DNA of 25,278 nt from Cytophagales bacterium (GCA_038212815.1 JBBQUC010000001.1:1-25278), one strand, 5' to 3'; positions 259 to 7,564 are shown, counted from the stretch's first letter. Made by a program: numbers and translations. The notes: generated from the letters alone by a model not told the origin.

Positions 259-351
259 CTACCAGTTGTAAAACCAAAGCTACCGCTTTTTTGCCGAACA
301 CTGCCAGCTACCAAGTATAGCCATCGGGCCGGTAGCTACACACCAACTTTG
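259..351 (+). promoter_or_regulatory. Shared 93-bp upstream cassette, copy A
   Basis: ACCAGTT (261), ACCGCTT (282) and GCCAGCT (303) at 21-bp spacing, ending in CCAACTTTG (343-351). Ungapped alignment to 2151-2243 gives 69/93 identity by hand count. Confidence 0.75.
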
Positions 352-376
352 TTCCATCACCCCAAAATTTAGTATC

Positions 377-2035
377 ATGACACTCTTCTCTAACCTGTCA
401 CGTCCTGTCCTGAAAGCGACCGTCCTGACCACAATGCTGGGCCTATTGGTAGGTTGCCAGGAAATCAAAGACATGGCTGAGGTAAAGCCACTTAATGGTG
501 TTACCTATAAACTCAATTTCCAGCCCGCGCCTACCTTAGTAGAAGGCATGGTGGTCGATGCGAAAACGGGTTCCATGCTCGACGTGCCGGTTAACGTAAT
601 CATAGTCGGGAAGGATGCAGGCCGAACCGTTGACTTTGCCGGCCGGAGTATTACCCGTTACAAAACCGAATTAGGCAACTTCCAGATAGGAGTCCGTGGC
701 AGCGTTCCTACCGAAACCGCCCCTGCCGAACTGCGGGTCCTGATTGAGGCCGACGGGTATGTGTCATCCAGTGTCAACCTGCAACTGACGCAGGCAATCA
801 ATGACCCATTTACGATTCAGCTGGTTAAAAAGAGCGATGCACCCGACGGTGTGGCAGCTACCACCAGTACGCTGACAAACAACGCAAGCGGTGCTATACT
901 GGCCGACCAGCAGATACAGGTAAAGTCGCCTGCCGTAGGTGATTCCGTTCCGGCCATGGAAACCCGGCTGCAAATAGCTGCCAATACGGTAATGAAAGAT
1001 GCCAGCGGCCAGCCTGTGACGGGTAACGTAACCGCTTCCTTAGTGGCTTTTTCGGGTGAGAGCAGTGCGGCCATGCGTGTATTTCCGGGCGGAGGTAACG
1101 CAAGCATAGCTACCGATTTTAATGGCAGCACGGATACCCGATTCCCCATGAAACCCGGCGGATTTACAGCGATAAAACTAACGAACGGCAATGGGCAAAC
1201 GGTAGCTACATTCAGCAAGCCTGTCTGGATAACCATGAGTATAGCTCCTTCGGCAATCAATCCGGCTACGACTAAACCCTATGCCGCAGGCGACACACTG
1301 ATGACCTACAGCTATAGCGATTATACCGGCGAGTGGACGTATGAGCATAAAGGGATAGTTGAGCAGCAGGCATCCGGTTTAGTAGCCCGCTTTTACACGA
1401 TGCACCTGACTGATTTTGGCTGGTGGGGGAATATCTACGACTTTTTTTACTATCTGTTTAAGACACCTTCGCGACCCGTTTACCGAAATACGTACGTCAC
1501 CCTCCCCTCACTGCCTGATAATTATACGTATAAATTCCAGTCTCAGTCCTGGTGGATGAAGAATGCTTCTCAGGATTATGCTAAATCGTCTCGTAGTAAA
1601 ACGCTTCTTTTGGGGACGGATGTAGTAGGTAACAAAGATTATGAGGTCATTATCTCGACGACCTATGGCCAAACATTATACAAGGGCAAGATAAAAGCCT
1701 GCCAAAACAATGTGTTGACTACTGTCAGATTCCCGGCAAGGGCATCCGTTGCTTTCGACATATGGGGGTATTGTGCCAACAATGCCAATACCCTGATTTA
1801 TCCATTTGCCAACGTCTGGTATAAAAAACCATATGAGTCTGATTCGGACTATAAGTATGGCTGTAGTTTAGAGTTCGGCAAAGCGACAATGACCGATCTG
1901 GAACCCAATACCGACTATTCATGCCGGATAACGTATGCGGGTAAAGCCAATTATTTTACGGTACGTACCAAAGCAACGTATGGAATCTATAGTCAGCAGA
2001 TTGCCATTCCCGCAACCGCAAATTTGTGTCAATAG
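377..2035 (+). CDS. Lipoprotein of unknown function, paralog 1, with a GPS-like HLTDF motif
   Basis: 552 aa with lipobox LLVG-C27. Residues ~27-345 are clearly homologous to 5742..7358. H343-L344-T345 lies at 1403-1411. The C-terminal region is Cys-containing and beta-rich with an FN3-like L-x-PNTDY segment. Confidence 0.85.
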   Translation: MTLFSNLSRPVLKATVLTTMLGLLVGCQEIKDMAEVKPLNGVTYKLNFQPAPTLVEGMVVDAKTGSMLDVPVNVIIVGKDAGRTVDFAGRSITRYKTELGNFQIGVRGSVPTETAPAELRVLIEADGYVSSSVNLQLTQAINDPFTIQLVKKSDAPDGVAATTSTLTNNASGAILADQQIQVKSPAVGDSVPAMETRLQIAANTVMKDASGQPVTGNVTASLVAFSGESSAAMRVFPGGGNASIATDFNGSTDTRFPMKPGGFTAIKLTNGNGQTVATFSKPVWITMSIAPSAINPATTKPYAAGDTLMTYSYSDYTGEWTYEHKGIVEQQASGLVARFYTMHLTDFGWWGNIYDFFYYLFKTPSRPVYRNTYVTLPSLPDNYTYKFQSQSWWMKNASQDYAKSSRSKTLLLGTDVVGNKDYEVIISTTYGQTLYKGKIKACQNNVLTTVRFPARASVAFDIWGYCANNANTLIYPFANVWYKKPYESDSDYKYGCSLEFGKATMTDLEPNTDYSCRITYAGKANYFTVRTKATYGIYSQQIAIPATANLCQ

Positions 2036-2150
2036 CTGTTGCTAAGTAACTGATTCCGTTGGCCTTGTTGGGATAAGAGTAGAAAATTGAGCTACTCCCC
2101 GGCAGGGTCAATTTGTGTTTAGCCGGTTTTGTTCTTCTTCCGGTTATGGG

Positions 2151-2243
2151 CTACCAGTTGCCAAGTAAAATCCACCGCTTTTTTGCTGAATACCGCCGGT
2201 TATTAAATCCCGTCATCTGGCCTGTAGCGATACCCCAACTTTG
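2151..2243 (+). promoter_or_regulatory. Shared 93-bp upstream cassette, copy B
   Basis: ACCAGTT (2153), ACCGCTT (2174) and GCCGGTT (2195) at 21-bp spacing. CCAACTTTG at 2235-2243 is at the same offset as in copy A. Confidence 0.75.
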
Positions 2244-5717: not shown

Positions 5718-5741
5718 CTCATTTCTTTCGCCTATTCTGCC

Positions 5742-7358
5742 ATGAAAACCGCTTTACAAACAAACCGACCGCTCTGGAAAGCCACCCTGCTGAGCACCCT
5801 GCTAGGCCTGTTGACGGGCTGCCAATACCTTGACGATGTAGCCCATGTGGATCCACTCAACAATATTGCCTATAAGCTCAATTACCAGCCTGCACCCACC
5901 ATTGTGCAGGGACTGATTGTGGACGCTAAAACCGAAGAACCACTCACAATCCCTGTTCGGGTAAGTCTTTTTGGTAAAGATGCGGGCCGAACTGTCACGT
6001 TTGACGGCAGCTCAGCTCTGAATTTTACGACCGAAAAAGGAGACCTCTACCTCGGCCTGAAAGGAACCTCCCCCACCGAAGCCACCCCTGCCGAACTCCG
6101 AATTGTGGTAGATGCCGATGGCTATGTATCGTCCGGTAAAACCCTGCGGCTTAGTCAGGCGTTAAACGAACTCTTTGTCATCCGGTTAGTCAAACAAAGC
6201 GATACACCCGTTGGTGTAGCTGCCCTGAATCGCACGCTACAAACGAATGCAAGTGGTGCCACGCTCGCTGACCAGCAAATCCAGGTTACGAATGCTGGGG
6301 GCGATTCTGTTTCGGCTACGAAAACGCTCATGCAGATTCCGGCTAATACAGTACTGAAAGACGCTAAAGGTCAACCTGTAACAGGGACGATAGTAGCCTC
6401 GGTGGTTACGTTTTCGGGCGAGAGCGCGGCTGCACTAAAAGCCTTTCCGGGCGGCCTTGATGCGCCTATCGCCAAAGATATAGAGGGGCGCAGCAATACT
6501 ACGTTTCCGGTCAGTCCAGGCGGATTTGTTGCCATTAAAATGGTCAATGAGCGCAGGCAGGCCGTATCGACTTTCAGTCAGCCTGTAACGGTGCAGATGA
6601 GTGTATCGCCAACGGCACTGAACCCGGCTACCGACAAGCCATACATGGCTGGAGAGCCGATTCTGATCTATAGCTATAACGAGCAAACCGGCGAGTGGGT
6701 CTATGAAAAACAGGGTATGGTAGAGCAACAGGGAGCCGGATTAGTGGTCAGTATGCAAATCACCCACCTGTCATTCTGGGATTGGCTCGTGAATCTATTT
6801 AGTATTATCAAACAGACGTTTACACCCGATTGTGACCTCAACTACACCCTGACCACCCTCCCCGACAACTACCCCTATCGGTACGAACTCCGGCGTGGTG
6901 GCTACTATTTTGCCGGTGGCACCAGCCAAAGTCGCCGGTTATCGTTCCGCACCGCACCGAAGCAAAATTTTGAACTTGTGCTGATGACCCCGGAAGGTGG
7001 CGTATTGGGCCGGTTTACGAATACCGGATGCGGGAATATTGATGTTCGGTACGCATTTCCGCCCCGACCTGTCGAGGTATACTTTTATGTGCAGGCTACC
7101 TGCCCCAACGGAAAACAGGTAGAAATAAACCCAACCGTTACCCTATTTTGCGGCAAACCCGGCACTCCCTCGGTCTATTGGGCACCCACCACTTTAGTGA
7201 ATGGACGGGGGTATATCCGAAACCTGGCCTCCAATACCGACTATACGGTTATTGCCTACTATAACGGCATTATCAGCTATCCTCTCCGTACAGGGTCAAT
7301 TTCGAATTCACGCAAATTCCTCTACCAACTCTCGCCAACCTGTAGCATTTGCCGCTAA
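5742..7358 (+). CDS. Lipoprotein of unknown function, paralog 2, with a GPS-like HLSFW motif
   Basis: 538 aa with lipobox LLTG-C27. H342-L343-S344 lies at 6765-6773. It is homologous to 377..2035 and diverges sharply after the motif. Confidence 0.85.
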   Translation: MKTALQTNRPLWKATLLSTLLGLLTGCQYLDDVAHVDPLNNIAYKLNYQPAPTIVQGLIVDAKTEEPLTIPVRVSLFGKDAGRTVTFDGSSALNFTTEKGDLYLGLKGTSPTEATPAELRIVVDADGYVSSGKTLRLSQALNELFVIRLVKQSDTPVGVAALNRTLQTNASGATLADQQIQVTNAGGDSVSATKTLMQIPANTVLKDAKGQPVTGTIVASVVTFSGESAAALKAFPGGLDAPIAKDIEGRSNTTFPVSPGGFVAIKMVNERRQAVSTFSQPVTVQMSVSPTALNPATDKPYMAGEPILIYSYNEQTGEWVYEKQGMVEQQGAGLVVSMQITHLSFWDWLVNLFSIIKQTFTPDCDLNYTLTTLPDNYPYRYELRRGGYYFAGGTSQSRRLSFRTAPKQNFELVLMTPEGGVLGRFTNTGCGNIDVRYAFPPRPVEVYFYVQATCPNGKQVEINPTVTLFCGKPGTPSVYWAPTTLVNGRGYIRNLASNTDYTVIAYYNGIISYPLRTGSISNSRKFLYQLSPTCSICR

Positions 7359-7381
7359 TCATCAATTAATCAAACCAATCA

Positions 7382-7564
7382 ATGCCCATGAAAACCTTAC
7401 ATTGCCACGATGTTGGCTTCGACTGCCCGGCCATAGTGCAAGGCACTACCGACGAAGACGTATTGCGCCAGGCCGCCGAACACGCCCAAACGGTGCATGG
7501 CGTTACCGTAACCCCCGCCATGGGAGAACAAATCAGGACGCTGATTAAAGAGGAAGCCGACTAA
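7382..7564 (+). CDS. DUF1059 family small protein (start may be 7388)
   Basis: MKTLHC.DVGFDC.....G.T.EDVL..A.EHA..VHG pattern with the conserved C-x6-C...H-x4-H of DUF1059. Confidence 0.8.
   Translation: MPMKTLHCHDVGFDCPAIVQGTTDEDVLRQAAEHAQTVHGVTVTPAMGEQIRTLIKEEAD

Follow-up and report, generated by a model that had tools for sequence, protein, structure and literature searches.

Autoinduced regulons under LytTR-type response regulators, such as those of AgrA at P2/P3, ComE, PlnC/PlnD and BlpR and, in E. coli, of BtsS/BtsR and YpdA/YpdB, are the described systems closest to the one considered here. What unites them are directly repeated boxes, spaced with a period near 21 nucleotides (nt) and set at a constant distance from the core promoter on its upstream side, and a site ahead of the regulator's own operon, which comprises a small open reading frame (ORF), one or more kinases and the LytTR regulator; bacteriocin or lanthipeptide genes belong to such regulons. 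Published LytTR sites consist of 9-11-nt repeats with 11-13 nt between them, and the YehT site includes ACCGCTTA (PMC4847170). For the LytTR two-component systems of Bacteroidota with periplasmic propeller sensors, no target regulon was found described in the literature. Here we analyze a promoter cassette that occurs three times within positions 259-7564 of a 25,278-nt stretch of DNA from a Cytophagales bacterium (GCA_038212815.1 JBBQUC010000001.1:1-25278; the whole stretch is hereafter the window), where it precedes genes for a lipoprotein, a heme protein resembling tryptophan 2,3-dioxygenase (TDO) and a small outer-membrane β-barrel. The cassette is probably an activator-dependent promoter of the LytTR type that serves a regulon dispersed over the genome, with only the barrel and the lipoprotein forming a conserved physical module in this region.

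Phased repeats of the promoter cassette

The cassette is a module of about 100 bp in which three direct repeats of the form CC[AG][CG]TT stand in an exact 21-nt phase and are followed by a -7 box of the Bacteroidota type, for which the consensus is TAnnTTTG. The repeats are in order strong, weaker and strong, and the last of them ends about 30 nt upstream of the -7 box. The copies at 259-351 and 2151-2243 are identical at 69 of 93 positions in an ungapped alignment, and the copy at 3981-4073 agrees with either of them at 54-55 of 93, the identities being concentrated in the boxes and in the CAACTTTG -7 box. An alignment of 13 promoters from 4 genomes, situated ahead of unrelated genes, is nearly gapless over 105 nt, with an invariant CC at columns 6-7, 27-28 and 48-49, the -7 box fixed at columns 88-95, and a constant spacing interrupted by at most one gap. 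In the promoter C104 all three boxes are full and lie 21 nt apart.

A sequence-only profile (R2), built from 12 promoters that all lie outside the window, recovers exactly three sites in its 25 kb, namely 260-358 (E 2.4e-11), 3980-4082 (E 1.5e-9) and 2152-2248 (E 3.7e-9), the next-best match having an E-value of 1.4. An earlier note, made from the window's sequence, had claimed that non-homologous genes stand behind a common 93-bp cassette, and the recovery of just these sites by a profile trained elsewhere bears this out. The same note had considered that the cassette might prove to be a generic genome-wide repeat; instead, with 17 matches to the full profile in the genome, it appears as a member of a promoter family. 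A local element, as suggested by a BLAST search that found only two close copies in the genome, was likewise overturned by degenerate pattern and profile searches. The degenerate pattern, searched with 3 mismatches, gave match counts near those of the control and was used as a lead only; it pointed to similar sites ahead of small-membrane-protein genes in this genome and in two relatives. A 13-nt box matrix had called the middle box absent, which was corrected by the alignment, where a shorter common core is seen at the exact 21-nt phase. Scanning for sigma-70 and terminator consensus sequences, which are ill-suited to Bacteroidota, gave no signal above the shuffled control.

An intergenic repeat of about 93 nt ahead of unrelated genes might also be a structured RNA leader akin to a riboswitch, or else a DNA fragment, mobile or duplicated, that does not act as a promoter. 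We consider both highly improbable: an Rfam scan of positions 1-9000 gave no match at E <= 1, the consensus RNA structure of the 13 promoters contains 0 pairs (on which count the RNA-leader reading was dropped), the conserved positions are only those of the phased boxes and of the -7 box, orientation and distance to the start codons are fixed, and the element lies mostly upstream of the predicted transcription start.

In the source genome, which is 68% complete, the 17 sites comprise the three in the window and at least 14 other units (Table 1), and at those non-training matches that were examined a same-strand ORF begins about 100-220 nt downstream. Our survey of co-occurrence and promoters covered 151 genomes of the family from 51 genera, and at least one site is present in 9 of these genomes (7 genera). 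Spirosoma sp. HMF4905 (G001) carries the same module at 15 sites and a second relative (G002) at 7. The targets that recur across genomes are operons combining a small membrane protein with a kinase or LytTR regulator, DUF6252 lipoproteins, a 230-aa protein and the TDO-like gene; in Spirosoma a homolog of the DUF1059 protein of the window (62% identical) likewise has a module of its own immediately ahead of it. The small membrane protein is characterized by a [KR]xFDW motif followed by a C-terminal transmembrane helix (hereafter the FDW protein), and the version in the window, as its alignment shows, is paralogous to the genes that open the kinase/LytTR operons.

The remaining units of the source genome include one such operon on contig C20, the products of which match His_kinase (PF06580, 1.7e-17) and LytTR (2.4e-18), and four small peptide genes. 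Of the latter, three have readable downstream sequence, with LanC following one, LanB following one and an exporter of the ATP-binding cassette (ABC) type with a C39 peptidase domain following two; the Pfam matches are LANC_like (3e-33), Lant_dehydr_N (1e-68) and Peptidase_C39 (2e-35 and 3e-33). On C20 the kinase/LytTR operon adjoins a class I lanthipeptide unit back to back, and each has its own module ahead of it. This 12-kb locus (about 1-12174, minus strand; L046, L079 and L120) runs from a module through a 55-aa lanthipeptide precursor, LanC, the C39-peptidase ABC exporter and a 451-aa protein with no Pfam match to a second module, the FDW protein, two kinases and the LytTR regulator, and has the appearance of a lanthipeptide cluster equipped with an autoregulated sensor of its own. 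The short peptide genes at C242:1802-1939, C484:590-727 and on C89 (L080-L082) also stand behind modules, begin with MKTN... and have leaders ending in GG; that on C242 is followed by a C39-ABC exporter and that on C484 by LanB. Several precursors seem to be under common control.

Where the earlier note had envisaged one inducible regulon, the part that stands is co-regulation: as the common cassette is a genuine promoter/operator, the joint control of the three units in the window can be soundly deduced. The part that does not is self-containment, the regulon being genome-wide.

A probable LytTR-type operator and its likely activator

Several features of the cassette agree with LytTR operators. 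At least two direct repeats recur in it every ~21 nt. It also holds a fixed position upstream of the core promoter, and by gene order is associated with a LytTR regulator gene that it would autoregulate, heading an operon of FDW protein, two histidine kinases and LytTR regulator in this genome, and of FDW protein and LytTR regulator in Spirosoma. In G002, G112 and G135 it heads an FDW protein and a kinase. The LytTR regulators adjacent to the FDW genes are 84% identical between the source genome and Spirosoma. The middle box of the cassette is ACCGCTTA, as in the YehT site, and the catalytic core of the kinases is of the LytS type (PF06580), as in BtsS and YpdA. Unlike in the described regulons, there are three boxes with the strong pair 42 nt apart, and the core promoter is of the Bacteroidota -7 type in place of -35/-10. 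The kinases are also distinguished by a large periplasmic Reg_prop β-propeller and Y_Y_Y domain, the product of the small gene that opens the operon is a membrane protein with a C-terminal anchor rather than a double-glycine pheromone, and the targets are mostly uncharacterized envelope proteins, the whole being known here from sequence. A further module lies on the minus strand at G081:C1:768580-768677 (L114), ahead of a gene for a 117-aa protein consisting of little more than a LytTR domain, with no receiver domain.

By autoregulation logic we assign the cassette to the LytTR system of C20, and the response regulator at the end of that operon is most likely the activator. A number of observations weigh against this assignment or against the regulon as drawn here. 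The genome has 18 LytTR genes, of which autoregulation logic singles out one; the strong boxes lie 42 nt apart and not 21, unlike the classic pair, and the middle box is weak by the 13-nt matrix (negative at +21 in L016 and L017). In addition, the closest ortholog of the TDO-like gene (L018, 85% identical) has lost the boxes, and neither the box matrix nor the profile found the module at the barrel-lipoprotein pairs examined in other genomes. The spacing of the boxes and the number of LytTR genes would also suit a different regulator, for example an activator of the AraC type, with the kinase/LytTR operon being merely one more target. However, the module heads operons of LytS-type kinases or LytTR regulators in at least 6 genomes, in addition to the LytTR-only gene in G081, the 21-nt phase and the ACCGCTT-type core match published LytTR sites, and no AraC gene was seen beside any module. 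Hence, control by such another regulator is unlikely.

Under the LytTR-type reading, stimulation of the kinases would lead the C20 regulator to switch on the dispersed regulon. In the window this would give rise to three transcripts, the first with lipoprotein 1, the second with the TDO-like heme protein and the third with barrel 1, the FDW protein, the broken barrel 2, lipoprotein 2 and the DUF1059 protein.

Barrel, lipoprotein and TDO-like families

The phyletic patterns of the three families suggest that two of them belong together. The lipoprotein is found in 56 of the 151 genomes and the barrel in 59, each in 19 of the 51 genera; the two coincide in 54 genomes, 5 further genomes having just the barrel and 2 just the lipoprotein. 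Among the 20 top lipoprotein matches outside this genome, 18 follow a same-strand barrel gene at a distance of 20-120 nt, the other 2 being second copies in tandem arrays, and the pair is present in 10 of 11 inspected loci, the 11th having a downstream tandem lipoprotein copy only. This co-occurrence and near-constant adjacency suggest that barrel-then-lipoprotein is a conserved two-gene module and support a functional coupling of its products, as the earlier note had supposed. The pairs of other genomes stand without the promoter module, which suggests that those in this lineage were recruited to the regulon recently and maybe incidentally.

The TDO-like gene, in contrast, occurs in just 3 of the 151 genomes, and neither of the two others that possess it has a match to barrel or lipoprotein. 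Its orthologs in four other genomes (L016-L019) are solitary and lie in unrelated neighborhoods. In two of them, L016 and L017, the boxes are recovered even by a model from which TDO promoters were left out (E 3.9e-4 and 4.3e-3), and for L019 the matrix scores point to a pair of boxes; the gene thus appears to be a recurrent, older member of the regulon with no special tie to the barrels. At L018:9340-10010 the CCCCAACTTTGG -7 region is kept, the TDO-like gene is divergent to a Reg_prop/Y_Y_Y/His_kinase gene, and the 644-nt spacer between the two contains a 22-codon ORF (9681-9749).

These patterns bear on the original view that the seven genes together make up a single physical envelope system with the heme enzyme serving the barrels and lipoproteins. 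The clustering of the genes on one strand and their common promoter design would favor it. Against this, the TDO-like gene is confined to 3 genomes as opposed to the 54 with both barrel and lipoprotein, it meets them only here, its orthologs are solitary, and the regulon holds many unrelated members. Nor is the system a self-contained one of the envelope, as the TDO-like and DUF1059 proteins have no signal peptide and the regulon is genome-wide, with its probable regulator on another contig. We therefore regard a single system of this kind as improbable; the distribution of the TDO-like gene differs from that of the barrel-lipoprotein pair, indicating a cluster of co-regulated units and not one machine.

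The lipoprotein is best compared with the GAIN domains found in adhesion GPCRs and their microbial counterparts, and with the ZU5 and FAM171 domains. HX(S/T) autoproteolysis has been shown for microbial GAIN ("MAIN") domains (bioRxiv 10.64898/2026.05.12.724683), and domain 2 of FAM171 has been described as ZU5-like (bioRxiv 10.1101/2025.09.18.675241). In the AlphaFold2 (AF2) model of lipoprotein 1 (pLDDT 78.9), which has its lipobox Cys at position 27, a transthyretin-like domain is followed by a large β-sandwich that extends to His343 and by two C-terminal β-sandwich domains. An exhaustive VIA-align search ranked GAIN first, the likeness covering matches to the β-sandwich (subdomain B) over model residues ~61-362, with Z-scores of 10.3 for CD97, 9.4 for CELSR1, 8.6 for Gpr126 and 8.2 for BAI3, followed by ankyrin ZU5 (Z 8.0-8.6); a Foldseek search of the PDB with the whole model returned generic multi-Ig matches only (TM ~0.1) and was set aside. 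A strand of the sandwich (334-343) ends in H343-L-T345 (nt 1403-1411). Both the lipobox Cys and an H-[LFS]-[ST] motif with invariant His are present in 18 of 18 aligned family members, and the corresponding H-hydrophobic-(S/T) motif at the domain end is self-cleaving in GAIN and MAIN. The family profile matches the FAM171A2 ectodomain structure (9y6n) with E 5.4e-6, the place of the motif being taken by Q-L-G in the human protein, and 12 of the 18 members match Pfam FAM171A1-2-B_N (PF10577) at E <= 0.1, the best at 1.8e-8. Lipoprotein 2 scores 18.3 bits against this model with its cut-off of 31.2, suggesting that the relation to FAM171 domain 2 is superfamily-level kinship and not membership. 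A further word-based search for homologs, made with the lipoprotein alignment, brought no additions.

The GAIN/ZU5/FAM171-like fold and the invariant H-x-(S/T) make it plausible, by analogy, that the lipoprotein cleaves itself at this motif. Less easily reconciled with such cleavage are the pLDDT below 50 of the segment after H343-L-T in lipoprotein 1 and the placement of the lipid anchor, which lies N-terminal to the motif, on the side opposite to that in GAIN/MAIN proteins, where the anchor is C-terminal to the site. With an N-terminal anchor the variable C-terminal part would become a free fragment upon cleavage, its domains being either held non-covalently or released. The constant pairing of the gene with that of a small outer-membrane barrel further distinguishes the lipoprotein from GAIN, ZU5 and FAM171 proteins.

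For the barrel, the nearest described protein is CarO of Acinetobacter baumannii, which it resembles in size, signal peptide and distant sequence similarity. Barrel 1 matches the NCBIfam model for CarO (NF038067) with E 8.9e-10 and 38.4 bits, far below the equivalog cut-off of 300, and the family profile matches the CarO structure 4fuv with E 3.9e-5; it is thus only a distant homolog, set apart by its position always directly upstream of the GAIN-like lipoprotein gene, and seen here through its sequence alone. The adjacency suggests that barrel and lipoprotein may form a complex. More speculatively, and as a less likely case, the two may constitute an undescribed outer-membrane display-and-release device of diderm bacteria, in which the self-cleaved lipoprotein would have its Stachel-like strand and variable C-terminal domains held or received by the barrel, and which in this lineage would be wired together with a new two-lobed TDO-type heme enzyme into the lanthipeptide-linked LytTR regulon. 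If true, its role in the regulon could be, for example, that of an immunity, receptor or signal-processing layer.

The TDO-like protein belongs with the TDO/heme-dependent aromatic oxygenase superfamily (TDO, IDO, PrnB, MarE, SfmD), as its C-terminal lobe aligns with bacterial TDO and keeps both His residues and the Tyr/Arg pair. It differs from these proteins in its length of about 480-550 aa with an extra N-terminal lobe, and in the setting of its gene, which is a LytTR-type regulon and not the kynurenine pathway. Close relatives are few, with six among 5.8 billion clustered proteins, and an exhaustive profile search retrieved 141 clusters (50% identity) in 1.8 billion proteins, mostly of 450-560 aa. 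The family profile matches Xanthomonas TDO (1yw0/2nw7) with E 2e-10 over the C-terminal lobe, and PF03301 is matched in 13 of 61 family members. Within this lobe a distal His243, a carboxylate clamp of Tyr309 and Arg313, and a proximal heme His401 align with TDO and are at least 90% conserved in the 61 members; we take the matching TDO residues to be H55, Y113, R117 and H240, respectively. In the N-terminal lobe Gln61 and Leu200 take the places of the two His, and the alignment of this lobe with the C-terminal one is weak (hhalign probability 62%, E 7.6e-5). Of the duplicated TDO-fold heme enzyme claimed originally, the relationship to TDO is real, and the internal duplication finds a weak fit, in which the N-terminal lobe would be a degenerate second TDO-like copy devoid of both His.

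Taken together, these features suggest that the protein is probably a cytoplasmic heme-binding oxygenase of an aromatic amino acid, the predicted heme chemistry following from the aligned residues. Two results tell in the other direction: taken singly, the protein of the window falls below Pfam PF03301 and has no Pfam match, and its AF2 model (6 sequences), though all-helical, has a pLDDT of 46 and is too poor for a fold search. An Atlas feature search pointed to a likeness to HSPRO (Hs1pro-1; 0.85), which was rejected as it is unsupported by any Pfam match. In the neighborhoods of distant relatives there are hints of amino-acid-derived metabolism, with carboxylate-amine ligase and pyridoxal-phosphate (PLP) enzyme genes in one case. 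In another (L067:9741-10868), a 547-aa distant relative (P0016) is followed by a gene of the DOPA-dioxygenase family and one for an acetyltransferase, hinting at aromatic amino-acid chemistry.

Gene layout and significance of the regulon

All seven units between 259 and 7564 are on the plus strand, as was originally noted, with the modification that barrel 2 is split by a frameshift. The two lipoproteins and the two barrels are indeed paralogous pairs, at 46% and 49% identity, respectively. The gaps within the third unit, from barrel 1 to DUF1059, measure 19-41 nt and are compatible with a single operon. The DUF1059 protein scores 70.3 bits against PF06348, above the Pfam gathering cut-off of 21.1. 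Across the frameshift the probable source run, as independently re-assembled in Logan, gives the identical sequence at about 6x depth (run X1, contig 4909-5690), which suggests that barrel 2 is probably a pseudogene, with one sample covering the frameshift site. The search of sequencing runs met this DNA in metagenomic DNA contigs and in no RNA run.

Table 1. Features of the window and further units of the regulon in the source genome
Feature	Location	Strand	Description
Promoter module P1	259-358	+	Boxes with CC at 263-264, 284-285 and 305-306; -7 box CAACTTTG at 344-351, 25 nt 5' of lipoprotein 1 ATG
Lipoprotein 1	377-2035	+	552 aa
Promoter module P2	2151-2248	+	-7 box at 2236-2243, 38 nt 5' of TDO-like ATG
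TDO-like protein	2282-3931	+	549 aa, no signal peptide
Promoter module P3	3980-4082	+	-7 box at 4066-4073, 31 nt 5' of barrel 1 ATG; third box weak
Barrel 1	4105-4818	+	237 aa including signal peptide; CarO-like small outer-membrane β-barrel
Small membrane (FDW) protein	4860-4988	+	42 aa; ORF opens at 4821
Barrel 2	5008-5717	+	ORFs 5008-5385 and 5382-5717; frameshift near 5356-5385
Lipoprotein 2	5742-7358	+	538 aa; H-L-S motif at ~nt 6765-6773
DUF1059 protein	7382-7564	+	60 aa; terminal gene of P3 unit
Regulon unit	contig C20		FDW small protein, two Reg_prop/Y_Y_Y/His_kinase (PF06580) sensors, Response_reg+LytTR regulator
Regulon unit	contig C416		Second FDW-kinase unit
Regulon units	C20, C242, C484, C89		Four small peptide genes
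Regulon units	C63, C28		Two DUF6252 lipoprotein genes
Regulon unit			Methyltransferase gene
Regulon units			230-aa protein; secreted 179-aa protein
Regulon unit	contig C278		Third barrel-lipoprotein pair, R2 E 2.9e-3

Beyond the third unit, a gene for a MerR/TipAS-type regulator (7561-8316, minus strand) is convergent with the DUF1059 gene, their stop codons overlapping by 4 nt; it was dropped as a candidate local regulator, being convergent and showing no link to the boxes. Farther downstream, two 35-nt direct repeats (12215-12249 and 12851-12885; 89% identical, 636 nt apart) lie within a 400-aa ORF (12200-13402) in which a Uma2 nuclease domain occupies residues 230-392 only. Degenerate overlapping repeats of about 18 nt are found at 17583-17677, where there are ORFs on both strands, including a 275-aa minus-strand ORF (17514-18341) with no Pfam match.

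At the level of individual families, the barrel-lipoprotein pair represents an unnamed pairing of protein families that roughly one in three genomes of the family possesses. If it cleaves itself as predicted, the lipoprotein would add to the newly recognized self-cleaving microbial proteins of the GAIN type, while having its anchor across the site from theirs. The TDO-like protein would be a rare fused double heme protein, in which the degenerate lobe may replace the partner subunit of a TDO dimer. More generally, LytTR two-component systems with propeller sensors are abundant in Bacteroidota, and the present case offers an operator that can be read from sequence and that would tie lanthipeptide production, a kinase operon and uncharacterized envelope proteins into one regulon.

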